The position numbers and the translations under genes are program-made. DNA of 32,000 nucleotides from Aquifex aeolicus VF5 (GTDB taxonomy: Bacteria; Aquificota; Aquificia; Aquificales; Aquificaceae), in the NCBI RefSeq assembly GCF_000008625.1, contig NC_001880.1, forward strand, positions 7,457-39,456. Reading direction: 5' to 3'. Shown here one piece after another: positions 12,593 to 31,555 of the stretch; position 1 is the stretch's first letter, and every line of letters begins with the position of its first letter. The notes beneath the pieces are model-generated. The model made no database searches. It was not told the origin of the DNA and saw only the letters and a list, made by a program, of their open reading frames with translations.

Positions 12593-12593
12593 G

Positions 12594-13109: not shown

Positions 13110-13233
13110 TTTATCATTCTCCTAAAGACTGAGAATTCCCAAACTTCATCACCAAAGAAGTTTGATATTTGAAAATCAATAGATTGGTAAATATACCTTT
13201 ATAAACATATTGAAAATCAAAGGCTTAAAGCAA

Positions 13234-13648
13234 TCATTCTATAGTTAAGGCATTTGTACACTTCTTTACTCCCTTATCAAAGGACACAACTTTGTATTTC
13301 TTAGAATACGCACAAAGAAGGCAATCTACAAAGTCTAAGTTCTTATTAGAGTATATCTTTAGAGCCTCTATAAGGAGCTCATTATCTTCAATTTTCACAT
13401 TCCTAAGTTCCAGTATGTCTATAAGTACCTGTGATATAGTAGGTCTATCAACTTTATATACTTTCTTGAAGAACATAAACAATTTCGGCTATCACTACCT
13501 GTGGGATAAAAACTTTTAGTTCTCCGGAGAGTATCTTATTAAATAACTCCTCAGCCTCTTTATACAGCTTCCTGTGGTCTTTAAGTAGATATCGCAGGAT
13601 TACATTAGCATTAACAATTATCTCTTTTTCCCCTTTCCGCGAGGCCAT
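13234..13648 (-). pseudogene. vapC: PIN-domain VapC toxin split by a frameshift (copy A)
   Basis: ORFs 13454..13648 and 13234..13482 together form one PIN domain (IIVNANVILRYLL / VIAEIVYVL / KVYKVDRPTISQVL / LDFVDCLL / VVSFDK). The frame changes in the AAGAAAG stretch. The first catalytic Asp position reads Asn. Confidence 0.75.
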
Positions 13649-13859
13649 CGCCTATTGCCTCTTTTTCAGTTTTCATTATCTCTTCTATGGACCTGTCACG
13701 GGTAGCGTATTTGTGTAGAATTCCTCCCAATTTCTTAACAGGTTTAATTATTACTTTTCCCTTCTCATAGGTTATCTCAACTATATCAGTTCCTAATAAT
13801 TTCCTGTACTCAGCAGGTATGGTAATTTGTCCTTTCTTAGTAAGCTTAGCTATTTTCAT
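13611..13859 (-). CDS. vapB: AbrB/SpoVT-type antitoxin (copy A)
   Basis: MKIAKLTKKGQITIPAEYRKLLG is a typical swapped-hairpin AbrB/MazE N-terminus. Lies upstream of, and overlaps, the PIN gene. Confidence 0.8.
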   Translation of the reverse strand: MKIAKLTKKGQITIPAEYRKLLGTDIVEITYEKGKVIIKPVKKLGGILHKYATRDRSIEEIMKTEKEAIGDGLAERGKRDNC

Positions 13860-13960
13860 TCTTACCTACCTCAATAGGTACTACTTATTGTATAAAGTAT
13901 TACTTACATTATATAGTGTTACTTTTCACAAAAATGATTACATAGTATAGGTAGTTGTGA

Positions 13961-14110
13961 TTAGCTATGCTGTTTGTTAGAGACTGCCAAGATAAGGGTG
14001 TAAGAAAATAGGTATATGGGTGTGCCTGCATACGCGTTTATCTTCATCCTTTCTTCATTCTTAAAGGCTTTTATGATTTCTTTCTGTTCTTCCGTTAGTT
14101 TTATACCCAT
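13961..14110 (-). pseudogene. N-terminal fragment of a UvrD/AAA_19-type helicase
   Basis: MGIKLTEEQKEIIKAFKNEERMKINAYAGT then unrelated sequence. The Walker A motif (AGTGKT) is broken after AGT. Confidence 0.5.
13980..14013 (+). mobile_element. IS terminus copy 5 (short)
   Basis: GAGACTGCCAAGATAAGGGTGTAAGAAAATAGGT, compared with copy 4 GAGACCGCCAAGTTAAGGGAAATAGGT. Confidence 0.5.
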
Positions 14111-14127
14111 TAGTTTTAATATAATTT

Positions 14128-14153
14128 GAGACCGCCAAGTTAAGGGAAATAGG
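14128..14153 (+). mobile_element. IS terminus copy 4 (short)
   Basis: GAGACCGCCAAGTTAAGGGAAATAGG, followed directly by TTGAAAATCAA. Confidence 0.55.
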
Positions 14154-14256
14154 TTGAAAATCAAGGGAACTGTTAATAACAGAACTTTACTGGAGTTTTA
14201 GAATCTCTTGAATATGCTTTGGCAATTATTTTATATGACATAAACTGTAAACTTCT

Positions 14257-14877
14257 CTAGTTTTCTAGGTACTCTTTTACTTTTCTTTTAAAGAATTCTT
14301 CAACTTCCTCCCAGTAAGGTTCTATATCTTCATAAACTTCTTCCCTTGCATCTTCGAAATATACGAGACTTTTTACAATAATTGAAAAGTCAATATTCCT
14401 GTACTTTTTTTTAACCAATTTTTCAAGCTCTTTTAAATCCCATCCGTGTTTTCTCATCAAAAACCACAGGTCGTAAAAATCCTTCTTTGACCCCCTTTGA
14501 GCTATTGCTACTGCCTTCATACAGGCAATATCCTTGTCCCCCGCTATGAAAATCCCAAGATCATTATTTTTTTCAGGGTTCTCTAACAGCGGGTATCGGT
14601 ATTCAAAAAAAGAGAATTTAATTCCATCAAGCAAGAATATTAGAGTATCTTTACTCTGATAAAGCCACCTTACTCTGCTTAGTTTATCAATTTGCCTTGA
14701 TATAGAGAAACTGTCAAAGGGTTTTTCAGGAAAAGTAAAAAAGTCAAAATCATCTGAAAATCTGTGCCCATATCTTATAAGCAAAGCGGTTCCTCCTGCA
14801 AGATAAAAATCGTTACAGATCCCTAAAGAAACTACTTTTTCTAAAGCCTCTCTCTGTTCTTTCTTTAACTTCCTCAT
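14257..14877 (-). CDS. AbiEii/AbiGii-like nucleotidyltransferase (DUF1814-type toxin)
   Basis: N-terminal FYLAGGTALLIRYGHRFSDDFDFF matches the family signature (GGTAL...R.S.D.DF). Confidence 0.6.
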   Translation of the reverse strand: MRKLKKEQREALEKVVSLGICNDFYLAGGTALLIRYGHRFSDDFDFFTFPEKPFDSFSISRQIDKLSRVRWLYQSKDTLIFLLDGIKFSFFEYRYPLLENPEKNNDLGIFIAGDKDIACMKAVAIAQRGSKKDFYDLWFLMRKHGWDLKELEKLVKKKYRNIDFSIIVKSLVYFEDAREEVYEDIEPYWEEVEEFFKRKVKEYLEN

Positions 14878-15061
14878 CGCTTATATTTAAAGCTAACTTC
14901 CAGAAAGCTCTATTTTTAGCGTCAAACCTATGCAGGTTTTTCAAAAATGCCTCTCTCAGTTTTTTCCTAGGATATTTTTTGAGAACTTCTTTTACGTTTC
15001 CGTAAAGCATTTCTCTTATCAAAAGTTCCCTTTCACTTTTTACCTTGTCCCAGTTAAACAT
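14813..15061 (-). CDS. Small upstream partner ORF of the AbiEii-like gene (candidate antitoxin)
   Basis: 82 aa on the same strand, overlapping the NTase start by 65 nt. No recognisable motif. Confidence 0.4.
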   Translation of the reverse strand: MFNWDKVKSERELLIREMLYGNVKEVLKKYPRKKLREAFLKNLHRFDAKNRAFWKLALNISDEEVKERTERGFRKSSFFRDL

Positions 15062-15223
15062 TTCTATCTAAAACAATTTTAAAATTTTCTAAAGCTTTCT
15101 TAGGTGTGGAGCCTACACTAAAAATCGGAGCTCCCACTACCTCAGCTCCCCAATTACTCTCTTTGTCCTTACGTAGAATTACAAGAAATTTATATTCGTA
15201 ACATATCATATATATTCAATATT

Positions 15224-15448
15224 ATGAAAAGAACGACCATTTTTATAAACGAAGAAACCAAACAAAAAATCAAACTAATAGCCAAGAAAAAGCAAAAAAG
15301 CATGGCAGAAATTATAAGAGAAGCTATAAATGAGTACATTGTAAAACACAAAAAGAATAAGAAGTATTCCTTTATAGGACTTGGTAAAAGCAAAAGATCT
15401 GATATCTCGGAAATTCATGAGGAAAAACTTTGGAAATACTCACAGTAG
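15224..15448 (+). CDS. Ribbon-helix-helix (CopG/VapB-type) antitoxin, with no toxin gene downstream
   Basis: MKRTTIFINEETKQKIKLIAKKKQKSMAEIIREAINEYI is a canonical RHH pattern. Only about 80 bp of non-coding DNA follows. Confidence 0.65.
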   Translation: MKRTTIFINEETKQKIKLIAKKKQKSMAEIIREAINEYIVKHKKNKKYSFIGLGKSKRSDISEIHEEKLWKYSQ

Positions 15449-15527
15449 ATAGGAGAGGTTTTTTGGGAATTAAAATTGGAAGAAGAAATCTGATGCTTTT
15501 ACCATAACAACTCAATTTCTTCGTTAT

Positions 15528-15635
15528 TTATCCTTGCTTTTCAGTTTCCTGCTTATTAACAAGCCAAACTATTACGAGACCAACTGTCAATATCCCAAGA
15601 CCTATAAGAATAAAACCTACGGTGTAGCTATCCAT
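15528..15635 (-). CDS. 35 aa single-TM peptide (cassette B), paralog of 7100..7207
   Basis: MDSYTVGFILIGLGILTVGLVIVWLVNKQETEKQG, with an 8-nt overlap with the upstream gene as in cassette A. Confidence 0.5.
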   Translation of the reverse strand: MDSYTVGFILIGLGILTVGLVIVWLVNKQETEKQG

Positions 15636-15831
15636 CTTCACTTCCCTTATTAACAAAGTAAACTCCCAGCAAAAAGAAGGCGAGCCAAAATCCAAAAACA
15701 AGCAATAAGTAAAATAAGTTCGCCTTATGCTTTTGAAATAATGGAGCAACCAAGCCAACTGAAAGGAAAACTGTGGCAACTGTGAGAAAGCGCTTTCCTA
15801 TTTCCTTAAGTGTTTCCCTTTTCAACCTCAA
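15628..15831 (-). CDS. 67 aa two-TM membrane protein (cassette B), paralog of 6904..7107
   Basis: Same length, same TTG start and the same MRLKRETLKE N-terminus. Confidence 0.6.
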   Translation of the reverse strand: MRLKRETLKEIGKRFLTVATVFLSVGLVAPLFQKHKANLFYLLLVFGFWLAFFLLGVYFVNKGSEDG

Positions 15832-15855
15832 AAGATTTCCTCTCCTTCTTTTACT

Positions 15856-15972
15856 TCACTTAGCTTTTGGCTTTTTACCCTCTTCCAAAGTCATCTTAAG
15901 CATCATAACCACTATAAAGAGAAGAATTCCCCATAGGGCGACAGCTCCCAAGAAGGCAATCACATCATACAT
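15856..15972 (-). CDS. 38 aa single-TM peptide (cassette B), paralog of 6768..6884
   Basis: MYDVIAFLGAVALWGILLFIVVMMLKMTLEEGKKPKAK, with AAGGAGG before the ATG. Confidence 0.55.
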   Translation of the reverse strand: MYDVIAFLGAVALWGILLFIVVMMLKMTLEEGKKPKAK

Positions 15973-16000
15973 TTTTCTCCTCCTTGCTCTTTTCTAATCT

Positions 16001-16190
16001 CTAAAGTTCCTCAAGAAGATCAAGTATTTTCCTGTAAGTAACAATCGTAAAAAGGACAAATCCGAGTGTTAGCGATGAGCCCGCAAAAAGCAAGAAAACC
16101 TTTAGCAAGCTATCAAGCTTTAACAACAGCCCTATATTTCCACCGCCGAAAGTTAATGATAGCTTTAAAATTGGTGAAGGAATTCCAAAC
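16001..16190 (-). pseudogene. 5'-truncated paralog of 12840..13109 (cassette B)
   Basis: The reverse complement aligns at DNA level with 6575-6740. It is truncated at the same point (ATTTTAAAGCTATCATTAAC). Confidence 0.55.
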
Positions 16191-16194
16191 TTAC

Positions 16195-16753
16195 GACATA
16201 CAAATTCAAGTTTATATTTCTTTTTGTATCTCCTTCTGAAAGGAATTGTAGTAAATCTATGTGGAAAGTTCTATCCTTTAAAAACTTCATTGGAATGTCT
16301 ATGTCGTGAAGTATAGATCTTATTTTCATTATGTATCCATCAAATTTATATCCGTTGTAGCTAACAATTCTATCAGCTTTTATTATTTCTTCCCAGAATT
16401 TTTGTATGAGGATTTTTCCTTTTCTTCAAGCTCTTCATAAATAAAGTCGGAACTTATCGGTTCAAAGAAAACTTCTACAGTCTTATTCTTACCACATGGG
16501 ATTAGTTTTTTTGTCGTTCTGGTTTGTTTGATCGGAAAGATATACTACTTTTCCTTCTTTTATTATCACTATCTTCTATAAGTACCGTTGAGAAAGATAC
16601 TAAAATAAGCGTGAAGGGATTAAAAGAAAATTCTCGTTCAATATCTTCCTGTGTTTTTTCCCTTTTGCCCCGCTTCTGAATGTATAAATAGTCATCGTAA
16701 GTAATATTCCTTTTATCAGGAACTGTTTCTATATCAAAAACTATAACTTTCAC
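16195..16753 (-). pseudogene. PolB-exonuclease-like 3'-5' exonuclease (COG3298-type), multiply frameshifted and 3'-truncated
   Basis: 16502..16753 starts MKVIVFDIETVP (ExoI DxE motif). Further pieces IVIIKEGKVVYL, ILIQKFWEEIIKADRIVSYNGYKFDGYIMKIRS and FHIDLLQFL lie in other frames. Confidence 0.65.
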
Positions 16754-16790
16754 CTTCTTCCTCCTTCTTTTATTATATTTTTAACCAGTT

Positions 16791-17339
16791 TCAGCGTTTA
16801 CTTATTCTTATAACGGAAAACAGAGAGGTGAAAATATTTCTCTTTTCACTTACCCCTATAGTTTTTAAAAACTCCTCTTTTAGAATGAGATAACTGTCCT
16901 GTAAAAATCCATTATCAAATTCTTCAAGCGGTGTGAGATAACCCGCATCTTTTATCTGGACTTTATAACAAGGGACAAGTTTCTTTTGATCCTGTTTGTG
17001 ATAATAACGGACCTCTTCAAATTTTTCGGGAGAGGTAAGGTAGAGTTTCTTCCATCCTTTGAGCATAGCCCTTTCAAAGTTCCCGTAATAATTTTCGGGA
17101 ACGGGAATTCCCTCGTTAAGTAGAAAGTCTCTTGAAAAGTAAAGAGGATCTTCTTCTTTTAACTCAATCTTTTCAGGATTAACACATTTTAAAAACTTCA
17201 GAAAGAGAGAATTGTTTGCTTTTCCTAAAAGTTTATTTACGCTCTTTTTTGAAGAAATCTGAACCTCAAAAGGCAAGAAACACGCTCTCCTGAAAATCTG
17301 CCTTTCTCCCGTAAGATCAAAAAGATTACTGGTTAACAT
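16791..17339 (-). CDS. Hypothetical protein, last intact gene of the nuclease/ATPase island
   Basis: ORF 16791..17372. The ATG at 17339 follows AGAGGAG and leaves a 14-nt overlap with the ATPase gene. Confidence 0.5.
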   Translation of the reverse strand: MLTSNLFDLTGERQIFRRACFLPFEVQISSKKSVNKLLGKANNSLFLKFLKCVNPEKIELKEEDPLYFSRDFLLNEGIPVPENYYGNFERAMLKGWKKLYLTSPEKFEEVRYYHKQDQKKLVPCYKVQIKDAGYLTPLEEFDNGFLQDSYLILKEEFLKTIGVSEKRNIFTSLFSVIRISKR

Positions 17340-18105
17340 AGCTCCTCTTTTTACTCCCGAGTCTCCACTCAATTCCTTTAGCTTTTAGCTTTGAACCAAG
17401 TGCTCTTTTATCCCTGAGATGTTCTGGTGGAACTTCGTCAATAAGAACAGGCATTCTGTTATCTATGTAAAGAATTGCCTCAAAAGTATTTGCCTTGCTG
17501 TTTCTGGTTTCCTTTAATTTTCCGTAGTAAATTTTTTCTGTCCCCAGAAGTTTTGCTATGAAATTAAGAAGCGTAGTTTTTCCGGCCTTAGGAGTACCTA
17601 TTAAAAGGGAAAATACGGGAAATTTATTTATATCCTTCATTAACTCAGTTGCTTTTTCCCTGACTTCCTTGAGAAATACAGAATAAAAAGAAAATATAAT
17701 AGCCTCTCCGGTTAAAAATCTGTGTTCCTCACTCGTTTCTGTGGAAAGTTCTATATAATCCTTTATCGCAATTACAGTTTTCTTTACAGATTCCTCGGGA
17801 ATAGAAATCTCAACAACGGATTTTCCATTATAAAAAATTTCTCCATCGCAAACCGCTACGTTTACTTTTTCATCTTTATCTTCCCTTTTATTCTTCAAGA
17901 TTTCCTGAATCTTTTGAGGAGATATTAGTATTTCCTTCTTCTTTTCCGCAAGCTTCTGAAACATTTCTGCGCTTTCTTCAACCGCTTTTTTTCTGACAAG
18001 AGACTTCTGAGCTTCGTTAAAAATGGGACTGTTAATCACTTTAGTATAGTAGTAATTGAGAACAACATTTTTTACTTTTTCGTTTTTCTCAAATTCCTTT
18101 ATCAC
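17326..18105 (-). CDS. P-loop NTPase (possibly SF3-helicase-like)
   Basis: Walker A LLIGTPKAGKTTLLNFI and Walker B-like MPVLIDEV. GTG start; the frame stays open upstream to 18333. Confidence 0.6.
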   Translation of the reverse strand: MIKEFEKNEKVKNVVLNYYYTKVINSPIFNEAQKSLVRKKAVEESAEMFQKLAEKKKEILISPQKIQEILKNKREDKDEKVNVAVCDGEIFYNGKSVVEISIPEESVKKTVIAIKDYIELSTETSEEHRFLTGEAIIFSFYSVFLKEVREKATELMKDINKFPVFSLLIGTPKAGKTTLLNFIAKLLGTEKIYYGKLKETRNSKANTFEAILYIDNRMPVLIDEVPPEHLRDKRALGSKLKAKGIEWRLGSKKRSYVNQ

Positions 18106-18284
18106 TTCCCTTACTACTTCCGGTTCCTGAGTTTCTATAAACAGATTTAAGTGTTTTTCAATTTTCTTACTATTTTCAGATGCCTTTTTTCTTAAATCGG
18201 TGGAGCTTATTATTTTCCTTGCCCTACTTTTTACATAATTGTAATACCTTTCACATTCTTCAATTACGTTATCCTTTTCAATTA

Positions 18285-18740
18285 TTACAAAAAAAACTCT
18301 TCCTGAGGTCCCCTCCAGGCTAAAGAGGATAAATTACCACTCCCTGCTACGACAATTTTCCTTTCTTCGGATTCAAGTATGTATAACTTTGTATGACAGT
18401 TTGGAATGTAGTAAACGGAGAAATCTTTAAACATGGCTTGTTTACTTATTTCTTCTCCTTCTTTGAGGAACTTTTCCACTATAACTTCCAGGTTATAAAG
18501 TTCCCTTCCTTGTTCTTCTAACCCTATCAGGATTTCCACTTCCCTGTAATCCTTTAAAAGATCAAGGATACTCTTCAGAGAGGAGAAAGTTATAGCTTTT
18601 ATCCTGTTGAATTGCCTAAGGTATTTCCCTGGAATATCGTACAGGAGTTTAATTTCCTCTTCGCCTATACTAAGAATAGGCTTTTTAGTATCTTTTTCAG
18701 GTTCCTCTGAAAAAAGTTGTTTGTTCATTATACCTCCCAA
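18285..18740 (-). CDS. PLD-superfamily (HKD motif) nuclease domain protein
   Basis: C-terminal CHTKLYILESEERKIVVAGSGNLS matches HxK(x)4[D/E](x)6GSxN, with Glu at the Asp position. Confidence 0.6.
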   Translation of the reverse strand: MGGIMNKQLFSEEPEKDTKKPILSIGEEEIKLLYDIPGKYLRQFNRIKAITFSSLKSILDLLKDYREVEILIGLEEQGRELYNLEVIVEKFLKEGEEISKQAMFKDFSVYYIPNCHTKLYILESEERKIVVAGSGNLSSLAWRGPQEEFFL

Positions 18741-18878
18741 ACTACTTAAAATTTCGCATCAGATAGTGCCTATTTCAAGCTAAGTCCTATCTTTTACTAA
18801 ACTTACTTTTCTAACTTATATAAGTTATATTACTTATAAAACTAAACTTTATTTAAAGAATAAAATTCATTAGCACCC

Positions 18879-19649
18879 TTATACGACTTCTACCAGTAAA
18901 GGAAAAGGTACGCCGGTTCCGCTCACAATACCTTTACCGGTAGGTAGTTTCGGAAGAATGTTCGCTATATCACTTCCAGCAAATTCTACAAAAGTGGAAA
19001 CTGTATCAATGTCAGATGCATTTATAGTTCTAAACATAACCTGAGTGTTTAATTGAGAAAGGATATATTTGCTAACCTGTGCTGGTCTTTGCGTTATTAC
19101 CATAAGTCCTAAATTGAATTTCCTTCCCTCGGATGCTATCTTTCTGGCAAAAGTGAGAGAAAGGTTTTCTTTTCCTGCGGAGACATCCCCGAATCCCTTT
19201 TCTGGAGCAAAATTGTGCGCCTCTTCCAGAACTAAAAATCTTTTGGAAGGTTGTTTCTTATTCCTTGTAAAAAGCTCTTCCATTATCAGTCCTGCTATGT
19301 TTATTCTCGTTTGTGGATGCGTAATATTCCGGAAGTTAAAAATAATTACTCTCTTTTCACTTTCTAGTCCAGAATTTATTGCATCAAATACAGTTGTTTG
19401 GTTAGATAAACTATTTTCACCGTAAGTTTCTTTAAGGTAAGTGGTTATTTCTTGTATTTCCTTAGAACCCGCATTTAAACTTTCTATCAAATTAACAAGT
19501 GTTTTCTTAGATAAAGAAGTAAGTCTAAGAGAGGGTTTTATGTTCTGTGAAAGTTTTGATCTATTTTCCCTGGCCTGGTGTGAATTACCGCTTACCAGTG
19601 AAGGGTATCCTGCTTCTTTTATAAGTTCTTCCACTTCCTCTGGAAACAC
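18879..19649 (-). CDS. herA: HerA/FtsK-superfamily ATPase, C-terminal half (Walker B, arginine finger region)
   Basis: FLVLEEAHNFAP...EGRKFNLGLMVITQRPAQVSKYILSQLNTQVMFR is a typical HerA/DUF87 C-terminal core. In frame with 19686..20498 across one TAG. Confidence 0.75.
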   Translation of the reverse strand: MFPEEVEELIKEAGYPSLVSGNSHQARENRSKLSQNIKPSLRLTSLSKKTLVNLIESLNAGSKEIQEITTYLKETYGENSLSNQTTVFDAINSGLESEKRVIIFNFRNITHPQTRINIAGLIMEELFTRNKKQPSKRFLVLEEAHNFAPEKGFGDVSAGKENLSLTFARKIASEGRKFNLGLMVITQRPAQVSKYILSQLNTQVMFRTINASDIDTVSTFVEFAGSDIANILPKLPTGKGIVSGTGVPFPLLVEVV

Positions 19650-19685
19650 AGGGAAAATTGTATCTTCAAGTTCGATATGTTCTAT

Positions 19686-20498
19686 CTAGTTTTCATCTAT
19701 ATAACTCTTTAAATCGTTGAAGTATTCTCCGTGAGGATCAAGTACATAAACTTCAACTTCTTTATCGGATTCAAGTAAACTGGAAATAAACCTTTTTGTA
19801 AAATAGCTTTTTCCTGAACCGGTAGTACCTAGTACGAGCATGTGTTTACTTATCACCTCGTTTGCATCTACAAACACATCTATGTCAGAATTCTCAATCA
19901 CGCCAACTTTTACAGGAACTTCCATATCTCTCCCGGAAAAATTCTTCTTGAGTATTTTCCCCAGTGTTTTTTCTGATATTTTATAAACAGGTTCTCCTAC
20001 ATGGAAGGGATTTCTTAATATATCTAATTTTCCATCCTTTAGTATACCTATTACGTCCGCGGTTGCTATTTTCAGTTTATTTCCATTATTGTTGAGGTAA
20101 GCGTAAATAGCCGCCTTTTTCCATTCGTCATCTTTTCCTTTAGAAAAAATGGTTTTAAAGTCCTCTACGGGAGCAAAAACACTGGATTCCTGTGAAGTGA
20201 AGGGATTCGCAAAAAATCCCATATCGTAAGCAAAAATACTTGTTATCTTTCCGAGCACAATACCTTCCTGTAATTTCACTTCAACGTAAGAATGTAAACC
20301 TATATCATCATTGCCTACCAGAATAAACTCAAAGGATTGAGGTTTTACAGGATTTACAGTAAATCCTAAAAGATCATCTCCAAAACTTTCGGAATACTCT
20401 TCCTTAATTTTTTCAAAGTATTCACGTAGTTTTTTAATATGTTCATCACTGCCGTCCGATTCGTAATAAACTCCCGCTTCTATATTGCCCGTTGACAT
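19686..20498 (-). CDS. herA: HerA/FtsK-superfamily ATPase, N-terminal half (HAS-barrel region plus Walker A)
   Basis: HMLVLGTTGSGKSYFTKRFI...VYVLDPHGEY. Ends at TAG 19686-19688, which is in frame with the downstream half. Confidence 0.75.
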   Translation of the reverse strand: MSTGNIEAGVYYESDGSDEHIKKLREYFEKIKEEYSESFGDDLLGFTVNPVKPQSFEFILVGNDDIGLHSYVEVKLQEGIVLGKITSIFAYDMGFFANPFTSQESSVFAPVEDFKTIFSKGKDDEWKKAAIYAYLNNNGNKLKIATADVIGILKDGKLDILRNPFHVGEPVYKISEKTLGKILKKNFSGRDMEVPVKVGVIENSDIDVFVDANEVISKHMLVLGTTGSGKSYFTKRFISSLLESDKEVEVYVLDPHGEYFNDLKSYIDEN

Positions 20499-20499
20499 A

Positions 20500-20835
20500 T
20501 CAGATAATCCTGCATCCGGTAAAGTTCGCCGAACCTACGACTGCCCTTTTATTATCAACGATTATGAATTTTGCATGTAGCCTGTTACACAGGTAAATTT
20601 TTCCATTTATATCTTTAATATTTCTAAATACTCTGTCATTAGTTATGAGAAAATCCCTAAGTTCTGATGCTCTCAATATTATTTCAGGAGAAATATTTTT
20701 ACTCTTTGCTATATTCAGGATTTCTTCAAATATACTCCCTTTTATCCATGCGGATGCGATTTTTATGCTTTCCTTAGCTTCTTTTGTTATTTCTAAGATT
20801 TTCTTATATATTTCCTAGCTCGTCAGGATTTCCAT
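20500..20835 (-). pseudogene. Small Nuc-like PLD-family nuclease with in-frame TAG at codon 7
   Basis: GGAGGG, then ATG at 20835, MEILTS, TAG 20815-20817, then EIYKKILEITKEAKESIKIASAWI...NRLHAKFIIVDNKRAVVGSANFTGCRII. This is a perfect HxK(x)4D(x)6GSxN motif. The stop lies 1 nt before the herA ATG. Absent from the ORF track. Confidence 0.7.
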
Positions 20836-20948
20836 ATATTCTCCCTCCACTTCGGCTAATATAATATTTAATCTTATTCAGCATTGTATCAACAGGCTAT
20901 CAATGAAGTAATAAAATCTAAAGGAAATTTTCAGAGAACAAGCAAAAT

Positions 20949-21539: not shown

Positions 21540-21622
21540 AATTCATATAAAGATTATACGTATGAGCATCAAAAAAATATCGCTTTCAAAAAGCTGAAGC
21601 TGCGAAGGATAGAAACTAAACG

Positions 21623-21862: not shown

Positions 21863-21873
21863 AGCTATTAAGT

Positions 21874-22092: not shown

Positions 22093-22149
22093 TTACATTA
22101 AGATAATAAGCTCTAAAGCCTTCCTTTTCAAGGAAAAAATAGAATTAGA

Positions 22150-23509: not shown

Positions 23510-23514
23510 AAGTC

Positions 23515-23718
23515 TTACGCATTCTCTGAGAGTATTTCCGTTATAAGATCCTTCAACGTTTTCCCTTCCTTTAATGCCCTCATTTTAAGAGAAAACCACA
23601 CATCATAAGGAAGCTCTATCAGAAGTTTCTTAACCTGTGGTTTTTCTTCCCCTTCTTTTATCTTTGCAGAAGCTATAAATTCCTCGGGTTTTTTTGAAGG
23701 TTTCTTCGGTATAGCCAT
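23515..23718 (-). CDS. Small RHH centromere-binding partition protein (ParG-like)
   Basis: 67 aa directly downstream of parA. KKLLIELPYDVWFSLKMRALKEGKTLKDLITEIL fits an RHH with a basic flexible N-terminus. Confidence 0.6.
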   Translation of the reverse strand: MAIPKKPSKKPEEFIASAKIKEGEEKPQVKKLLIELPYDVWFSLKMRALKEGKTLKDLITEILSENA

Positions 23719-23748
23719 TATGTAACCTCCTTTATTTAAATTACTAAG

Positions 23749-24390
23749 TTAAGCAATATTAATTATATTACTAATTTCATTTATTAAGCTTTCAAGCTCC
23801 TCTATTGCTTTTTTATCGTTCATTTCAAGCACTCCCTTTCCTTCTTTTACAGAGTTTCTGTAAACTACTCTTGAGTGCAATCTTGAATTTAATACTCCTA
23901 CGGAGTACTGCTGTGCTAATTCTCTCAGGGTTTCCTCAGCTTCTTTCACGATGTTAGACTTTATTACTTGATTAAACAGTATATAAGCCGGGATATCTGC
24001 AAAGGTCCTTGCTTCTTGCAGAACCTTCAGGGTATCTTCTGTTGCCCATACATCGTAAACACTTGGGAGAACAGGTATTATCAAAGCTCCGTTTGATGCT
24101 GCAAGAATCGCGCTTCTGAAAACTGCACTATCTCTTCCCCCTACGTCGATAACTACAACATCAAAATTTTCAAAACCCTTAATGTCTTTGTGAATTGTGG
24201 GCTTTGTAATACCTATTGCTTTAATGTCGTCTTTTTCCCTGAGTGCCCTGAAGTTCAAACTACTTTCCTGGATATCCGCATCAATAAGTAGAACACTTTT
24301 TCCTCTGAGAGAATATCCTACGGCTAAATTACACGCAACAGTACTTTTCCCTACTCCTCCCTTCTGATTACCTACCACGATTACTTTCAT
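23749..24390 (-). CDS. parA: ParA/Soj-family partition ATPase (type Ib size)
   Basis: Deviant Walker A MKVIVVGNQKGGVGKST, then VLLIDADIQ; 213 aa. Confidence 0.9.
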   Translation of the reverse strand: MKVIVVGNQKGGVGKSTVACNLAVGYSLRGKSVLLIDADIQESSLNFRALREKDDIKAIGITKPTIHKDIKGFENFDVVVIDVGGRDSAVFRSAILAASNGALIIPVLPSVYDVWATEDTLKVLQEARTFADIPAYILFNQVIKSNIVKEAEETLRELAQQYSVGVLNSRLHSRVVYRNSVKEGKGVLEMNDKKAIEELESLINEISNIINIA

Positions 24391-24399
24391 AATGTTATT

Positions 24400-24575
24400 T
24401 ATTTTAGCAATATTTATTAGATAAGTTAGCTAACTAAAACTGATTTCAATATTTGATTATATAGATATGCCGCTTTCTATCTTTGCTTATCTAACTTATG
24501 TTGTTTAACTAATAATGATAACTTTTATTACAAAGTTTACTAACCTTAGTTAGTTACTAAAAAGCTTGAAACATT
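24400..24575. promoter_or_regulatory. Putative par promoter/centromere region with TAACTAA / ATAAGTTAG repeats
   Basis: Immediately upstream of parA. Contains AGATAAGTTAGCTAACTAA, CTTATCTAACTTATG and CCTTAGTTAGTTACTAA. Its core (24470-24560) is repeated in inverted orientation at 8854-8943. Confidence 0.55.
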
Positions 24576-24907
24576 ATGGTAAATACTTTATCAATAAAAC
24601 ATATGTTTATGAGAATATTTAAAAAGAAGATAATCAAAACGCTTTTAGGCCATATTTTAGTAAGGAGAAAGAAGAGGAAAAACCTTACGGATTTGGTAGG
24701 GGCTATTAAAGGAGGAGATAGCTTTAACGCAGTTGAGGATAAGCATAAATTATATCAAGTTTGCTAGACAAATAGCTTTAGTGGTAACGGTTGTAGGCTT
24801 TGCGTGGTGGTACATGAGAACGATTCTAAAAAATTTTTGTTAAGTTTTTTTAGAAACTCAATAATATCTTTTTCTTCTCCCGCAGAAACTTCAAAACTTT
24901 TTAGAGG

Positions 24908-25096
24908 GTTCTCATACTTATTATGTTGTCATTGAATGTGTATAAAGATTTAGGGTTTACATTAGTACCTATATTAATGTATGAGAGCTTTATTAGAAAG
25001 CCTTGAAAACAGGTAAGGTTCTCATACCTATGGGAAAACTCTAAAAAATGTGAAATTCTTGAAAATCAAAATGGTTCTCATACTTATATGAGAATC
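24908..25096. repeat. Palindrome array, family 3: GTTCTCATA-N4-TATGAGAAC (partly degenerate)
   Basis: Best copy 25074-25096 (GTTCTCATACTTATATGAGAATC). Weaker copies at 24908-24930 and 25018-25039. A right half-site TATGAGAGC at 24979-24987. Confidence 0.7.
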
Positions 25097-25176
25097 TTCA
25101 AAAAACTCATTTTTTTGAGGAATTGTTAACCTCGGTTTACAACTTTTTATTTTTCTTCCGTGTAAACCTTTCTTAA

Positions 25177-25614
25177 TCAAGTTTCAGAAAAGGGATTAAG
25201 GAGTCTAACTTTTTTGTTAAAAAGTTCCACCTCTTTATAAGGAGTGTCTTCACTAAGAACAATGGGGATGTTGTTATTAAGAGCGGAAGCTATTATTACT
25301 GCATCCCAAAATTGAAGGTAATATCTCTCTCTGAGAAAAATAGCAACTCTTAAGTCTTCACAATCTTCGTAAAGGATGTTGAACATTTTACTGATTCCCT
25401 TGATAATGCTATCTACTTCTTCGAAAGGTAAGCTATACTTTTCATGAGATATTCTGGCAAGTTCCTTGCATACTTGCGAGCTTATGTAAATTTTCCATCC
25501 ATTATGCAATAGACCACTTATGTATTCCTGCAAAAATTTCTGTTTTATTTCATCTTTATCAATCCCGAAAAAATAGCCGAGCAAATTTGTATCTATTAAA
25601 ACTTCCTTCTTCAT
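25177..25614 (-). CDS. PIN-domain ribonuclease (VapC-like), with no adjacent antitoxin ORF
   Basis: MKKEVLIDTNLL..., CKEL, FWDAVIIASAL and VLSED give the acidic PIN quartet pattern. Confidence 0.75.
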   Translation of the reverse strand: MKKEVLIDTNLLGYFFGIDKDEIKQKFLQEYISGLLHNGWKIYISSQVCKELARISHEKYSLPFEEVDSIIKGISKMFNILYEDCEDLRVAIFLRERYYLQFWDAVIIASALNNNIPIVLSEDTPYKEVELFNKKVRLLNPFSET

Positions 25615-25753
25615 GATACTCTTAACCTAAACTTTCCCTAAATTTAAGTCAAGTGTGTATAAAATCCGTGATTTACCAGCCTAATCATTATATCAATTAT
25701 AAGTTGACAGGTAGGTAAACTGACATAGTATTTATTAGAGGAGGTTTAGAAAA

Positions 25754-26194
25754 ATGGCTTTTCATATCCTACCTACTTTTGAGAGAGGAAATGAGAAAGG
25801 AGCTGTTATAGGGCGTGTAAAACACAGAAGGGAAAATCCATTAGAATACGAAATAAAGGTAGTAAAAAAAGGAAGTGTAAAAGTTTTTGTAGGAAATAAG
25901 GGAGTATTTGTTATAGAGGACGATTTAGCAAAAGAGATTATAAAAGCGTTATGGGAAAAATACGTCAGGGAAACCTACGGAAGAAGGAAGCCAAAAACGA
26001 ATAAGGAAATAGTAGAACATCCGATAGAAGTGAGAGAAAGTTTTCTTATAAATTTCTTTAAAGAGAAAGGTTTTATCACTTCATTTAAGTCCTGTATGTA
26101 TCTTATAGAAGGAACCAGTTCAGATGAATCAACTATTAAAGACTTAATACTTTTAACGAAAAAGATTAAAGAAAAGGTAACGAAAACAACATGA
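25754..26194 (+). CDS. Hypothetical protein
   Basis: 146 aa ORF with GAGGAGG before the ATG. Divergent from the PIN gene. Confidence 0.5.
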   Translation: MAFHILPTFERGNEKGAVIGRVKHRRENPLEYEIKVVKKGSVKVFVGNKGVFVIEDDLAKEIIKALWEKYVRETYGRRKPKTNKEIVEHPIEVRESFLINFFKEKGFITSFKSCMYLIEGTSSDESTIKDLILLTKKIKEKVTKTT

Positions 26195-26435
26195 AGTCAA
26201 CAAGCTCATACTAAAGGTGCAAACTTGAATCTGGAAGATTTTACTAATGGGAGAAAGTGTCGCTTCCGTTGTAAATGAACCTTTACAACTTCGCTTCTTA
26301 GTTCTCCTGAATTCGGGATAATTTTTGTTGTCCTAGTTCTTTTGTTAACATTTTTCCCAAGGGAAGTTTAAATCACCGTATCAGCTTATTAGGTATCTTG
26401 AATTTCAATCAGTTACGATTAACTTAAAAGATACG

Positions 26436-27398
26436 ATGACGTATCAAAACGGTGTTGAAGTTTTACTTGAGGAATTTCTTGATTATCTAACAAAGGAAGA
26501 AACCATATGCTCGCTGGAAATAGAAAAGTTAAAAGTTTCTATAGACGAACTTGAGAAAGAAACTGATGAGCCGAGAGTACTTCAAGGGATAAACTATTTC
26601 AGAACCGCAAAAGAAGTTTACCAACTTTCACGGAAAGCATATGAAACAAAAGAGGAAGTGGTCTCTGAAGCTTTAATACTATGGATTTATGAAAACCTAT
26701 GGAAAGGATTTAATGTTCCCAAGGGATATAGAAAAAGTGATATGGTTATTTTCGGTGCAAAATTTAGTCCTCCACCACCATATGTTGTTCCGAACCTTAT
26801 AAGAACAATAGTAAACTGGCTAAGGAATGAGAAAACAATAGATGTAGTTAAGAAATCTATTATTTTCCACACGCTATTTGAAGTTATACATCCGTTTCCT
26901 GACGGCAACGGAAGAGTGGGAAGAATACTTTTGAATGCAATCCTCGTAGAAAACGGACTCTTAAATGTTGCTTTTAGAAATAGAGAGAAATATATCTCCG
27001 CCTTGAGAGAAGCTGAAGAGGGAGCTATAGTAGTTGTTGAAAAACTATCAAGAGGAAGAAAAATAGATTATTCATCTATTACAGAAACTGTAGAGTATTA
27101 CGGAAACTTAAATGTTTTTGATGAACTAATAAGAACCGAGATGATGCACAGCTTGAAGGTATACTCAAATATAAAGCAAGTTTTCTTAACTCCAGAGGAG
27201 GCAGCAAAACTTTTAGGTTTAAAGAATAAGGATTACGTAAGAGTTCTAATCCACAGAGGAAAACTAAAAGCAGTTAAGGAAGAAGGTAAGTGGAAGATAC
27301 CTCTTTCTGAAGTTGTAAAGAACTTTGAACACAAACTGAAAGGAGAAGAATTCAAACTTGCCAATAATTTGTTCAAAGGTAAACTTAGTCCTTCTTAA
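26436..27398 (+). CDS. Fic-domain protein with C-terminal excisionase-type HTH
   Basis: Fic motif HPFPDGNGRVGR. C-terminal LTPEEAAKLLGLKNKDYVRVLIHRGKLKAVKEEGKWKIPLSEVV resembles HTH_17/excisionase domains. Confidence 0.85.
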   Translation: MTYQNGVEVLLEEFLDYLTKEETICSLEIEKLKVSIDELEKETDEPRVLQGINYFRTAKEVYQLSRKAYETKEEVVSEALILWIYENLWKGFNVPKGYRKSDMVIFGAKFSPPPPYVVPNLIRTIVNWLRNEKTIDVVKKSIIFHTLFEVIHPFPDGNGRVGRILLNAILVENGLLNVAFRNREKYISALREAEEGAIVVVEKLSRGRKIDYSSITETVEYYGNLNVFDELIRTEMMHSLKVYSNIKQVFLTPEEAAKLLGLKNKDYVRVLIHRGKLKAVKEEGKWKIPLSEVVKNFEHKLKGEEFKLANNLFKGKLSPS

Positions 27399-27438
27399 TT
27401 CCCGACAAAGTTGCTCTATCAGAAAGTTTTACCAGAAA

Positions 27439-27490
27439 GTCCTATATATAGGACAACTTTTCTACAGAGTTCTCATATCGGTATGAGAAC
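27439..27490. repeat. Two palindromes: GTCCTATATATAGGAC and a perfect family-3 site GTTCTCATATCGGTATGAGAAC
   Basis: 27439-27454 and 27469-27490, read directly from the sequence. Confidence 0.85.
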
Positions 27491-27781
27491 TTTTGCGTTG
27501 TGAACCATGGTTTACAACCTCAGGCAAGTCTTAACTGAGCTAAATTTAACCAAACTAAATTAATATACTTATGGAATATATACACGAAAGTATAAGAGAA
27601 TTCTGTTGTAAAAAGGGAGTGGGGTGTTCTAATTCTATCATTAATTCTGTCTCTTCTTGCAACATATGTGTAAACATTTTTCAAGGTAAGAAAGAAGAAG
27701 GTTTAACTTGAATTCCAAAAGCTCTTCAACTTTTTATTTTGCATCAGACATAGGAAAAAATCCTCCAAAACTCGGACCAAG

Positions 27782-28477
27782 TTAAGTAGCTTTCTTTCTT
27801 TTGAATGTTGGAAACAGAGAAAGGAAAGCCTCTATTTGTAAGAAAAGATGAGGCGGAATTTCCTTTATTAACTCTTTCCTCAACTCTTCAATCTTTTTGT
27901 TTCTGAGAAATTTAGCCGTCCTGAACTTTTCAAGACATACGTATATTCCCGCATTTGACATGTAATCAGGTTTTATAAAGTTGAAAAAGTATACTATTAG
28001 CCTCTTTCTGTCGTCGGGAGTATATCCTTTTTCCTCCAAAACTCTATACATGTAGGCAACAACTCTCGTGTATTTCGGGGCACTATACTTTTTCACGATT
28101 GGTTTTTTACTTCTTTTGTGAAATTGTTTCCTTCTTTCCCTTAACTTCGCATAAGTCCTGACAAGTGTTATTCCCTTTATAAAGTCCTTTAAATTTGGTC
28201 TCTTTCTACTGCCTAAGAAATATACTACGTCCTCCTCTACAAACTCTAAGGGATAACCATCTTTCATGAACCTTACCAGTCCTTCTTTTTTCATTTTCTC
28301 CCTTAACCACTCCTGAAGCTCCTTAAATGCTTTCTTTACACTTTTTACATCTTTTACATCTTTTATGGTTTGTGTGGTTTTAGTGTCTTTTCCATAATTT
28401 GTGGTATTACTGGAATTCCCATCTTTTATGTTATTACCATTCTTCCCATTTTCAACTTCCCGCTTTTTTCCGTCCAT
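27782..28477 (-). CDS. Hypothetical basic protein with low-complexity N-terminus
   Basis: 231 aa ORF with an N/G/K/T-rich start containing KDVKDVKSVKK. Divergent from the 9-bp repeat block. Confidence 0.5.
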   Translation of the reverse strand: MDGKKREVENGKNGNNIKDGNSSNTTNYGKDTKTTQTIKDVKDVKSVKKAFKELQEWLREKMKKEGLVRFMKDGYPLEFVEEDVVYFLGSRKRPNLKDFIKGITLVRTYAKLRERRKQFHKRSKKPIVKKYSAPKYTRVVAYMYRVLEEKGYTPDDRKRLIVYFFNFIKPDYMSNAGIYVCLEKFRTAKFLRNKKIEELRKELIKEIPPHLFLQIEAFLSLFPTFKRKKAT

Positions 28478-28571
28478 GCTAAAAATTGTATGCAGTTTTG
28501 AGGCGAAAACATATGAATAAGGTGTCTGCAGTTTGGAGGCGAGCTATATTGAATACATAATCACCATAAAA

Positions 28572-28686
28572 CATGGTAATTATTGCAAATATGGTATTTA
28601 TGGTCATTATGGTAAATACAAATTATGGTAAATATGGTAATTATGGTAAGTATGGTTATTATGGCAATAAAGGTAAACATGGTAAA
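28572..28686. repeat. Tandem 9-bp repeats TATGGTAAN, 5 + 7 units in two blocks
   Basis: Blocks 28572-28616 and 28624-28686, separated by a 7-nt phase break. They end 10 nt before the ATG of the ParM-like remnant. Confidence 0.85.
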
Positions 28687-28695
28687 AGGTATAAG

Positions 28696-29040
28696 ATGGT
28701 GTTGGGCTGGACCTTGGATTTGAACACACAAATGTAGTTGCAAATGGGAGGAAGTTTAAGTTTCCAAGCTGGATAACTTATCTTTCGAAAAGTACAATTT
28801 CGGAAGCAGAAGAGGTAAGGGTAGGCTCGGAGAGTATGGTTGTGGGGGAAGACGCAAAGTATGAACCGAGAAAGATAGAAATCAAAGGTGTCAACGCTGA
28901 TAAAGTATTCTCCCTACTTCCTCGCTTATATGGTAAAACTACTCGGCGAAGAACCAAAAGTTGTGATAAGCGATCTTCCTCTAGTGCTTAAGGACAAAAA
29001 GGAACAATACAAAGAAGTCCTCAAAAGTGTCCTCAGATGA
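28696..29040 (+). pseudogene. Actin-like (ParM/Alp-type) segregation ATPase remnant, frameshifted and truncated
   Basis: One frame gives VGLDLGFEHTNVVANGRKFKFPS (phosphate-1 DxG motif plus FPS). It is out of frame with ATG 28696 by 1 nt. A further shift occurs near 28905. It ends at 29040 after about 115 codons. Confidence 0.5.
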
Positions 29041-29060
29041 CATGTTCGAGGGATTTTTCT

Positions 29061-29274
29061 GAAGTAAGGTTTTTTGAATTTACGAAAGTAAGGCTAAAGA
29101 GGGAAGTCAAGTTGGTGAATTTCAAGGAAGTAAGGTTGAAGACAGGGAAGTAAGGTTCGTGAATTTGCAGGAAGTAAGGTTAAAGAGGGAAGTAGGGAAG
29201 TTTCGTATTGTGTGAATTCGCAGGAAGTAAGGGACAAGCGGGAAGTCTTGTGAATTTTTACCTTTTTGTGAATT
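29061..29274 (+). repeat. Iteron array of interleaved GGAAGTAAGG and GTGAATT boxes
   Basis: GAAGTAAGG-type boxes at about 29061, 29084, 29126, 29145, 29170 and 29223, with variants at 29101, 29188 and 29240. GTGAATT-type boxes at 29115, 29159, 29212, 29250 and 29268 (TGAATT only at 29075). All are in one orientation. Confidence 0.8.
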
Positions 29275-29574
29275 ACCACTTTGAAGTAGGGTTTACAGGA
29301 AAACGTAGAGTTTGCTAAAATCAGGAATATTCTGTATGCGTAAGTCTTATCCCGAAGGCAAATTTAAAAATCACGAAGTATTTAATCAATTTTTCTTCCT
29401 TTTCAGGTATATCAAATATCCTGCAAGTCCTAGATTAAATAGGAATACTAGCGTAGTTGCAATAAAGAATTTGTCAAATTCAAACATTTACTCACCTTGA
29501 AACTAGAGGCCGAAATAGTAATAGATAGTAATTTTATCCCAAATAAAGTAAAAAGTATATACTAATGGACAAAT

Positions 29575-30613
29575 TTGTAAACCTTGGTTGAGCCTGTTGA
29601 AAAAATCGTCATGACTTAGAGAATAAAGCGAGAGGAAGCCCATGTAATCCTCAAAAGGTTAAGACACAATAAAAGGAGCTTCAGAAGAAGGATCAAGTTG
29701 TAAAGAACAAACCTCCCTAGAACATACAAACTCGCAATCTCAAAGTCATAAACATTGTCCCTGTCCCCAAACCTGTTCTTAACTATCCCTATCACCTGCT
29801 CAACCCTGTACCTGTTCTTTCTATAAACCTTCCTCCTTATCTCATAATTCCTCTTAGCCCATAGCCTATACATGTTCCTAACTCTTGTATGTGCAGTATC
29901 CCTCACCGGAACTATAGACTCCATCCGTAGCTTCTTTATTTCCTCTAAAACTCCTGCAGACTTCCCATAGTAGGCATCCCCAAGAAAATACCTCGCTCTA
30001 AAGCCAAGTTCTTTGAGCATGGATCTTAGCAGCATATTCTCATCTGCATAGGATTTGCCTGTGTTTATATCCACTACTATAGCTTTGTTTCTTACAACTC
30101 CTACAAGAACTTCTGTTTTCACATGAGATTTTACATTCCTAAGTTCCTTTCCCTTCTTCCACTTGAGTTCATATGCCTGTGCATATCCAAATCCGGTTCC
30201 GTCAGCAATAAGGCAGTAAAACTCTTTTGCCTGAAGCTTTTCCATTATCTCCTTTGCGGTCCTGTGTATTAGCTCTTTGAGATAGCCCCGGTTTAGTTTT
30301 CTGAACCTGTAGTGGAGAGTGGTAAAGTCAGGTACTTTGGGGAATAGGTCTTTTAGTCTTTCTTCTAAATCTCGGAGGGAGAGGTTTTCTAAGATCTTAA
30401 TCAGTAGTGCTGCTACTATGAGGTGATCTTCGTAAACTCTGGGTCTTCCTCTTTTGTTGTACTGACTTGGTCTAATGGTATTGCATATTTCCCTGCTTTT
30501 GGTTAATATCAGTTTTATCAATTGCTTGTTATTTCTTGTTCTCATTCCCTTCCTTCTACTTCTTCTCTTCCACTGTGTCAAGATTTTTTAAACGGGCTTA
30601 CCTTGGTTTACAA
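29575..30613 (-). mobile_element. IS element (IS4/IS5-superfamily type) with imperfect terminal inverted repeats
   Basis: Left end TTGTAAACCTTGGT at 29575. The right end reverse complement is TTGTAAACCAAGGT, ending at 30613. Encloses a single transposase ORF. No clear target duplication seen. Confidence 0.7.
29616..30581 (-). CDS. DDE transposase (DDE_Tnp_1 / IS4-IS5 type)
   Basis: 321 aa with LIADGTG, FLGDAYYG and YRKNRYRVEQVIGIVKNRFG, a D, D, E pattern with the Y-R-E signature. Confidence 0.8.
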   Translation of the reverse strand: MTQWKRRSRRKGMRTRNNKQLIKLILTKSREICNTIRPSQYNKRGRPRVYEDHLIVAALLIKILENLSLRDLEERLKDLFPKVPDFTTLHYRFRKLNRGYLKELIHRTAKEIMEKLQAKEFYCLIADGTGFGYAQAYELKWKKGKELRNVKSHVKTEVLVGVVRNKAIVVDINTGKSYADENMLLRSMLKELGFRARYFLGDAYYGKSAGVLEEIKKLRMESIVPVRDTAHTRVRNMYRLWAKRNYEIRRKVYRKNRYRVEQVIGIVKNRFGDRDNVYDFEIASLYVLGRFVLYNLILLLKLLLLCLNLLRITWASSRFIL

Positions 30614-30695
30614 TTCCTGGAAAACAAAAAGGAATGACTTTCTAAGAGTGACGAATCGGTTTACATTAGGAAATACATATTAAGGATAAGTAAGG

Positions 30696-30944
30696 ATGAA
30701 GATAGCTAAGCTTACTAAGAAGGGACAATTTACCATACCTACGGGATATAGGAAATTATTAGGAACTTATATAGTTGAAATAACCTATGAGAAAGGAAAA
30801 GTAATAATTAAACCTGCTAAGAAATTGGGAGGAATTCTACATAAATACGCTATCCGGGACAGGTCCATAGAAGAGATAATGAAAACTGAAAAAGAGGCAA
30901 TAGGCGATGGCCTCGCGGAAAGGGGAAAAAGAGATAATTGTTAA
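30696..30944 (+). CDS. vapB: AbrB/SpoVT-type antitoxin (copy B)
   Basis: 82 aa with 6 substitutions relative to copy A, all in the first 53 residues. Confidence 0.8.
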   Translation: MKIAKLTKKGQFTIPTGYRKLLGTYIVEITYEKGKVIIKPAKKLGGILHKYAIRDRSIEEIMKTEKEAIGDGLAERGKRDNC

Positions 30945-31321
30945 TGCTAATGTAATCCTGCGATATCTACTTAAAGACCACAGGAAGCTGTATAAAGAGG
31001 CTGAGGAGTTATTTAATAAGATACTCTCCGGAGAACTAAAAGTTTTTATCCCACAGGTAGTGATAGCCGAAATTGTTTATGTTCTTCAAGAAAGTATATA
31101 AAGTTGATAGACCTACTATATCACAGGTACTTATAGACATACTGGAACTTAGGAATGTGAAAATTGAAGATAATGAGCTCCTTATAGAGGCTCTAAAGAT
31201 ATACTCTAATAAGAACTTAGACTTTGTAGATTGCCTTCTTTGTGCGTATTCTAAGAAATACAAAGTTGTGTCCTTTGATAAGGGAGTAAAGAAGTGTACA
31301 AATGCCTTAACTATAGAATGA
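30907..31321 (+). pseudogene. vapC: PIN-domain VapC toxin split by the same frameshift (copy B)
   Basis: ORFs 30907..31101 and 31073..31321 are identical in protein sequence to the copy A ORFs. Confidence 0.75.
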
Positions 31322-31555
31322 TTGCTTTAAGCCTTTGATTTTCAATATGTTTATAAAGGTATATTTACCAATCTATTGATTTTCAAATATCAAACTTCTT
31401 TGTCCAAGAAGTTTGGAAAAATAAATCAAAAGGAGGAGGTAGAAAAATGCTAAGAAAACTCTTCTTTCTCCTCATTTTCCTGAGTGCAATCACACTTGCA
31501 GTTCCAGAAGAAGTTTGAGGTTTGATAATCAATATGTTTATAAACTTCTGGCAGG

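Follow-up and report, generated by a model that had tools for sequence, protein, structure and literature searches.

The stretch of DNA examined here (hereafter, the window) comprises 32,000 nucleotides (nt), positions 7,457 to 39,456, of NC_001880.1, a 39,456-bp replicon of Aquifex aeolicus VF5 with a G+C content of 36%; about 7.4 kb of the replicon lie outside the analysis, and the coordinates below count from the first base of the window. The window contains one long inverted repeat, each arm of which carries a copy of a two-gene toxin–antitoxin (TA) locus composed of an AbrB/SpoVT-type antitoxin gene and a vapC pseudogene. In a repeat search, the arms (copy A, 13136-13868, minus strand; copy B, 30687-31419, plus strand) were 733 nt long without gaps and 97% complementary, with a spacing of 16,818 nt between them, and in this ungapped register base p of copy B corresponds to base 44555-p of copy A. 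Gapped blastn extended weak homology to 13136-13892 and 30662-31419 (758 nt gapped). That is, the inverted duplication proposed in an earlier, sequence-only reading of this DNA, with 707-bp arms at 13153-13859 and 30696-31402, does exist, but its extent was placed slightly short at both ends. The flanks of the two copies are different unique sequences on either side, and the copies are unrelated upstream of about position -34 relative to the antitoxin start.

The antitoxin genes of copy A (13611-13859, minus strand) and copy B (30696-30944, plus strand) each encode 82 amino acids (aa) with an AbrB/SpoVT-MazE fold. They are 93% identical to each other at the protein level, and among 5.8 billion clustered proteins neither has a closer relative than the other, the next best match being a chromosomal protein of 69% identity. 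Antitoxin A matches PF04014 at 36.8 bits, above the cut-off of 24.7 bits, whereas antitoxin B scores 16.5 bits, below it; homologues carry PF04014. Each antitoxin gene lies directly upstream of vapC on the same strand and overlaps it by 38 nt (30696-30944 vs. vapC from 30907 in copy B, with the same layout in copy A). The chromosomal relatives of the antitoxin also adjoin a vapC gene, which is either normal or separately damaged.

The vapC (PIN domain) gene is broken in the same way in both copies. Pseudogene A (13234-13648, minus strand) is split into two open reading frames (ORFs), 13454-13648 and 13234-13482, by a 1-nt insertion at about 13452-13468, and pseudogene B (30907-31321, plus strand) is base for base the same, with the insertion falling within CAAGAAAGTATATAA at 31087-31103. 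Taking one base out of CAAGAAAGTAT (copy B, 31087-31103) restores a 137-aa PIN protein that matches nearly the whole model at 54.4 bits; at this point three homologues read VLQKVYKVDR where the window reads VLQESI followed by a stop. In the repaired reading, the first catalytic Asp is moreover an Asn in both copies (IIVNANV, vs. I[IL]DANV in 3/3 homologues; codon 13610-13612 in copy A, and codon 13, AAT, at 30943-30945 in copy B). The lesions are thus, relative to the three homologues, one base substitution and one insertion that is not of the homopolymer type. The gene assignments made from the letters alone held up (a PF04014 antitoxin, and a PIN gene split alike into two ORFs in both copies), and the toxin is predicted to be inactivated twice, by the Asp-to-Asn change and by the frameshift, which makes the pair a degenerate member of the VapBC family, not a working TA system.

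Compared base by base, the two copies fall into three zones. The inner 171 nt (13698-13868 in copy A, minus strand; 30687-30857 in copy B, plus strand), which cover antitoxin codons 1-54 and the ribosome-binding region, contain 17 mismatches; the middle 545 nt (13153-13697, minus strand; 30858-31402, plus strand), which take in antitoxin codons 55-82, the vapC pseudogene in full and 81 nt of 3' flank, contain none; and the outer 17 nt contain five. Fifteen of the 17 inner mismatches lie within codons 1-54, where they account for six replacements and for seven codons with silent changes only. The sequence-only reading had counted about 14 substitutions in the 5' part of the antitoxin gene, which is in essence right, and had listed the replacements I12F, A16T, E17G, D25Y, V41A and T53I, all of which a codon comparison bears out, as it had the base-for-base identity of the roughly 80 bp of downstream flank. 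Its central observation, a sharp identity boundary inside the antitoxin gene, is also borne out at the base level, where the mismatches form a step (17/171, then 0/545) instead of being evenly spread. The value observed in a maximum chi-square breakpoint test was matched in 2 of 20,000 permutations (p ~1e-4), and when the 22 mismatches were permuted 200,000 times, a clean run of 545 nt did not appear once; at the rate of the 5' part, about 54 differences would be expected over the 545 nt, as opposed to the zero observed. Within the 5' part itself, there was no significant gradient of divergence (10/63 vs. 7/108 mismatches; Fisher p = 0.06).

The step involves sites that are silent at the protein level. 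Based on the Nei-Gojobori method, codons 1-54 show nine synonymous differences over 36 synonymous sites (synonymous divergence, dS, of 0.30) and six non-synonymous differences over 126 sites (non-synonymous divergence, dN, of 0.049), that is, a dN/dS ratio (omega) of about 0.16 (Fisher p = 0.001). The identical part, in contrast, shows zero changes at about 110 synonymous sites and at 81 non-coding bases, and the probability of no change at about 110 synonymous sites, given the synonymous rate of the 5' part, is about 2e-14. A dS of about 0.30 together with a dN/dS of about 0.16 suggests that the two copies are old paralogues under purifying selection; the pattern in the 5' part indicates long divergence under such selection as opposed to hypermutation or diversifying selection. 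Since the 5' parts are synonymously diverged while the 545 nt are not, the difference between the two parts would be one of age, with old 5' parts and a young 545-nt tract, and not one of selective constraint. Synonymous and intergenic differences are, in addition, beyond the reach of selection at the protein level, and hence selection cannot account for the identical tract.

The outer edge of the identity coincides with a hairpin. In both copies (13140-13164 at the outer end of copy A; 31391-31415 at that of copy B), the sequence CAAACTTC-N9-GAAGTTTG could form a stem and loop, and the identity between the copies ends in the loop. Of the first five bases past the identical tract, all of them loop positions, four differ, and the stem sequences are conserved. 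This hairpin sequence occurs at these two places only in the window, with no occurrence expected by chance. Beyond the end of the identity, 12 of the 17 bases match, including a 9-nt run that is the far arm of the hairpin and has an in-register chance of about 1e-4. With the identity ending inside a hairpin loop whose stems are conserved, the tract appears to be embedded in older, diverged homology on both sides. At the outer edge, a recent duplication that ended there would hence be a less fitting account than conversion between old paralogues.

At the inner edge of copy B lies an IS5-family insertion sequence (IS; 29575-30613, minus strand; transposase 29616-30581; terminal inverted repeats 29575-29604 and 30584-30613), which ends 82 nt upstream of the start codon of antitoxin B and 49-73 nt from the edge of the homology. 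Given this gap of 49-73 nt, the IS itself does not define that edge. We also considered whether the edge could be an old IS end, as GGTTTACAT at 30658-30666 resembles the IS terminal repeat, and rejected this candidate, the 9-mer with one mismatch not being clearly enriched in the window (18 found vs. 11.4 expected). No target-site duplication was visible at the element (flanks ...ACAAAT and TTCCTGG...), which hints that the IS took part in a rearrangement after its insertion.

Taken together, the best explanation of the identity step would be gene conversion of 545 nt between two old, inverted, paralogous and degenerate vapBC loci, to which, on the basis of the sequence comparison, we assign a probability of roughly 70%. 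Under this model, two inverted paralogous vapBC loci on one small replicon would have diverged to about 10% at the DNA level, and a recent non-reciprocal homologous recombination event would then have overwritten 545 nt of one locus with the sequence of the other, erasing every difference there. The patch would run from the antitoxin C-terminus through the entire vapC gene and into the 3' flank as far as the loop of the terminal hairpin, and it would have carried or overwritten the toxin region such that the same dead vapC is now found at both loci. As to the mechanism, we infer RecA-type conversion between the two resident copies. The change in divergence is abrupt and affects synonymous and non-coding sites alike, which is the mark of a putative conversion tract, and the tract is flanked on both sides by what appears to be diverged homology (the inner 171 or more nt at 90% identity and, more weakly, the outer 17 nt). 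The earlier suggestion that a conversion or recombination tract ends inside the antitoxin gene is accordingly supported by the step, by the contrast in dS (0.30 vs. 0) and by the permutation tests, and no other reading agrees with these counts.

Both vapC lesions sit inside the 545-nt identical tract, and both loci would therefore now consist of a (predicted) intact antitoxin and a dead toxin. The two lesions are common to both toxin copies, and conversion may have spread or preserved them; it may or may not have put a dead allele in the place of a live one.

Several points weigh against conversion between the two resident copies, or at least limit how far it can be taken. With only a single assembly available, either copy could have been the donor, and an external donor is conceivable. 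The homology at the outer edge amounts to 17 nt only and is partly forced by the self-complementarity of the hairpin, so that it carries less weight than the inner side. The roughly 7.4 kb of the replicon beyond the window could encode a third copy or a recombinase. Finally, if the sequence stems from an old shotgun assembly, some real differences in the 545 nt could have been lost through co-assembly of near-identical repeat reads, in which case the step would shrink but not be removed.

Alternatively, it is possible, although we consider it rather unlikely, that the whole locus was duplicated recently and that 171 or more nt at the 5' end of one copy were subsequently replaced by a diverged allele from another replicon or strain. 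Such an import predicts the same identity step, and the 5' side of copy B is indeed disturbed, with the IS 82 nt upstream and no relatedness to copy A beyond about 34 nt upstream of the start codon. Further, most of the non-synonymous changes appear to have occurred on the lineage of copy B. In an alignment of copies A and B with 12 homologues, copy A agrees with the prevailing residue at positions 12, 17 and 25, and probably also at 16 and 41, and overall retains the family consensus at 4-5 of the six variable positions; the Phe12, Gly17 and Tyr25 of copy B are absent from every other aligned homologue; position 53 is the only site where copy B (Ile) looks ancestral and copy A (Thr) derived. 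On the other hand, the import model has no candidate donor: the nearest other antitoxin is only 69% identical, and hence no third resident allele that could have served as donor is on record. It also leaves unexpected that the identity ends in a hairpin loop with the far arm conserved, which would not be anticipated if 13153/31402 were the endpoint of a duplication. We rate conversion above import for these two reasons, i.e., no donor on record and the hairpin-loop edge.

It is considerably less probable that the identical tract, the duplication or the orientation of the copies is an artefact of assembly or consensus calling, produced by the co-assembly of repeat reads. While a 545-nt identical repeat is near the read length of older sequencing, and several genes in the window are broken (both vapC copies and, through an in-frame stop, a HerA-like gene), the sequence itself gives no hint of an artefact. 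The copies adjoin unique sequence that differs on either side, their 5' parts are clearly separable, and the shared lesions are a substitution and an insertion of a non-homopolymer type. Collapsed repeat reads could mask a few differences, yet a drop from 10% to 0% could not arise in this way.

The geometry of the repeat also raises the question of inversion, which the sequence-only reading had considered possible for 13860-30695. The 545 identical bases in inverted orientation would be an ample substrate for RecA-type recombination, and an inversion of the 16.8-kb segment is plausible on these grounds. If conversion took place, the arms paired recently, which in turn makes the inverted isomer plausible; we infer that the same pairing of the arms could also be resolved as a crossover, inverting the segment. 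The promoters of both TA loci face into the enclosed segment, and both diverged 5' parts lie inside it. With promoters and 5' parts carried along and the swapped sequence the same in both copies, neither TA product would be altered by a flip, which would thus amount to a structural polymorphism and not to a switch. GC skew, tried as a trace of past inversion, tracks the coding strand and is hence uninformative.

In contrast, a programmed invertible segment, in which a site-specific recombinase would act on the arms and the flip would serve regulation or replication, is about as improbable as an artefact, or slightly more so. Its appeal lies in the inverted arms that surround a discrete 16.8-kb block, in the presence of one Rep-like paralogue in each unique part of the replicon, and in the conserved hairpin at the outer edge. 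However, among the window ORFs of at least 140 aa (scanned with Pfam, some also with NCBIfam or PADLOC), there is no serine or tyrosine recombinase, invertase or integrase, and a DDE transposase was all that turned up; the arms are long gene copies as opposed to short crossover sites; the TA gene products would not change with the flip; and the second orientation has not been seen. In the same way, the Hin, Gin and Cin systems, shufflons and hsdS invertons (for the last, PMC7672463) resemble the present case in that a block is bracketed by inverted repeats, but differ from it in that the scanned ORFs here include no recombinase gene, each arm is a gene copy of 733 nt and not a short site, and the flip would entail no coding or promoter change. 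The arms split the 39.5-kb circle into two unique parts, each with its own Rep-like paralogue, and we give equally little credence to the related idea that the arms are kept identical because the replicon uses flip-flop inversion, with the dead vapBC copies having been co-opted as recombination substrates. If this were true, the inversion could, as in the yeast 2-micron plasmid, turn theta replication into double rolling-circle amplification, or could switch the leading replication module.

Finally, selection without any recombination, with the DNA-binding N-terminus diversifying under selection and the rest strongly constrained, could appeal to the six changes in or beside the AbrB-type DNA-binding domain, to the drop in Pfam score (36.8 to 16.5 bits in copy B) and to the differences in the upstream ribosome-binding and operator-like region, but it is refuted by the distribution of the synonymous differences (nine of them in the 5' part with an omega of about 0.16, and no synonymous or intergenic difference in a pseudogene and a non-coding flank that should evolve freely).

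Some features upstream of the antitoxin genes may be related to their regulation. A 6-nt palindrome, TACCTA...TAGGTA, surrounds the ribosome-binding site of copy A (13861-13876), with a further TACCTAT 76 nt upstream, and both arms of the palindrome are altered in the counterpart of copy B (TACATA...TAAGTA; 30676-30692). Judging from these few bases of putative operator sequence, operator and DNA-binding domain could have diverged together. Scans for promoters and terminators around both copies returned only weak promoter-like matches, no more than in shuffled sequence.

Gene conversion between dispersed inverted paralogues is a textbook process, known from tufA/tufB of Salmonella and from rRNA operons, and the inverted repeats of chloroplast genomes and of the yeast 2-micron plasmid are kept identical likewise. 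The window resembles the tufA/tufB-type cases in having two inverted copies on one replicon, a sharp-ended identical tract inside older homology, and a substrate capable of inversion. It departs from them in that the genes involved are a dead toxin and an antitoxin tail, which are not essential, in that a single event is visible, and in that there is no sign of selected identity or of isomers. Similarly, the loci follow the layout of type II VapBC systems, with the antitoxin gene first and overlapping the toxin gene, the combination of PF04014 and PF01850, and homologues annotated as AbrB-family and PIN/VapC pairs, except that the toxin appears inactivated twice in both copies and antitoxin B is below the Pfam threshold, such that an orphan antitoxin pair is left. 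As to inversions mediated by composite transposons or IS elements, the IS5-family element at the inner edge of copy B, without a visible target duplication, is reminiscent of these; however, the window contains a single IS copy and no transposase paralogue, the arms are not IS sequence, and the IS end is 49-73 nt away from the edge. What we describe is a fresh instance of a known process, concerted evolution by gene conversion between inverted paralogues, here acting on a decayed VapBC pair. It involves no new mechanism, and its interest lies in a statistically clear conversion patch between paralogous TA loci on a plasmid whose host is probably a hyperthermophile. It would also mean that homologous recombination has recently been active on this replicon and that the replicon has the substrate for two inversion isomers. 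The relevance is mainly to the annotation and assembly of the replicon, with a minor data point on the decay of TA paralogues.

The replicon is nearly an orphan in the searches performed. Megablast of 22 kb against plasmids gave no match; a 30-mer from the identical tract had no exact match in genome, metagenome or viral collections; an exact-protein look-up of the two antitoxins returned no record; and the Rep-like protein had no plasmid match by tblastn and no metagenomic relative. A literature search, which did not extend to the original genome paper, found nothing on these repeats.

The segment enclosed by the arms (13869-30686, 16,818 nt) encodes AbiEii, a HerA-like ATPase with an in-frame stop, a weak PLD-like match, the second of two Rep-like paralogues, ParA with an RHH protein, a PIN gene, Fic and the IS. 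The contents listed by the sequence-only reading were all found here (HerA-like ATPase, AbiEii, ParA and RHH, second PIN, Fic and the IS5-family IS), the PLD-like match being weak and below threshold. The HerA-like gene (18879-20498, minus strand; HAS-barrel and DUF87/FtsK domains, HerA by PADLOC) was called as two ORFs of 270 and 256 aa and contains one in-frame stop (...YIDEN*IEHI...) at 19650-19652. Together with the two dead vapC copies, this broken gene suggests a replicon with decaying accessory genes.

The Rep-like paralogues, one inside the segment (22553-23509) and one outside (1329-2285), are 318 aa long and 40% identical to each other, without a Pfam or NCBIfam match, and each is preceded by a small divergent ORF (21874-22092 and 613-834, respectively), the two small ORFs being paralogous as well. 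The only relative of the Rep-like genes outside the replicon was found on a 3.9-kb contig (L008) of a metagenome-assembled genome labelled Aquifex aeolicus, which carries a 57% identical Rep-like gene, the small upstream gene and a homologue of ORF 14-523, and which shows no TA locus and no terminal overlap. The window hence looks like a mosaic in which a putative small-plasmid replication module is present twice, once within the inverted repeat and once beyond it. Given that the other paralogous pairs in the window share 40-66% protein identity, the TA duplication should be much younger than the Rep-like duplication. Just upstream of the inner Rep-like gene (22553-23509), two perfect 24-nt palindromes containing GTTCTCCTATATATAGGAGAAC (22149-22172 and 22396-22419) lie 247 nt apart and are candidate operator or origin sites.

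The IS5-family element has a counterpart at a distant chromosomal locus (L003, 5190-5945; also in L004-L006), where an abrB-vapC homologue (~59% aa identity) is directly preceded by a degenerate IS5-family transposase, 63% identical to that of the window and in the opposite orientation. This arrangement suggests that an association of IS and TA is common to both places, or that such elements prefer to insert upstream of this TA. Two palindromes at 25123-25142 and 27498-27517 (TTGTTAACC-TC-GGTTTACAA and TTGTGAACC-AT-GGTTTACAA) resemble the IS terminal repeats (TTGTAAACC...) placed back to back, and bracket a block of the PIN gene, a 146-aa ORF and Fic; the former is followed by a T-run and may be a plain terminator.

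Other repeats were also present, and a search of the whole window against Rfam gave no match. An older inverted duplication (6562-7343 and 15520-16270) shows 76% DNA identity over about 390 nt and 40-66% protein identity, and comprises three or four small ORFs without a family match; the surrounding region from 6.2 to 9.0 kb is otherwise without long ORFs and has a higher G+C content. A 59-nt element occurs in three direct copies (3013-3071, 12243-12301 and 12593-12651) that are 78-90% identical, the last two being 350 nt apart by ORF 12227-12592. Just left of the IS, a tandem array at 29061-29193 consists of three iteron-like units of about 43 nt (GAAGTAAGGTT...), and a second array at 31556-31718, with three units of about 30 nt at 66-nt spacing, lies inside ORF 31450-31740, just outside arm B.

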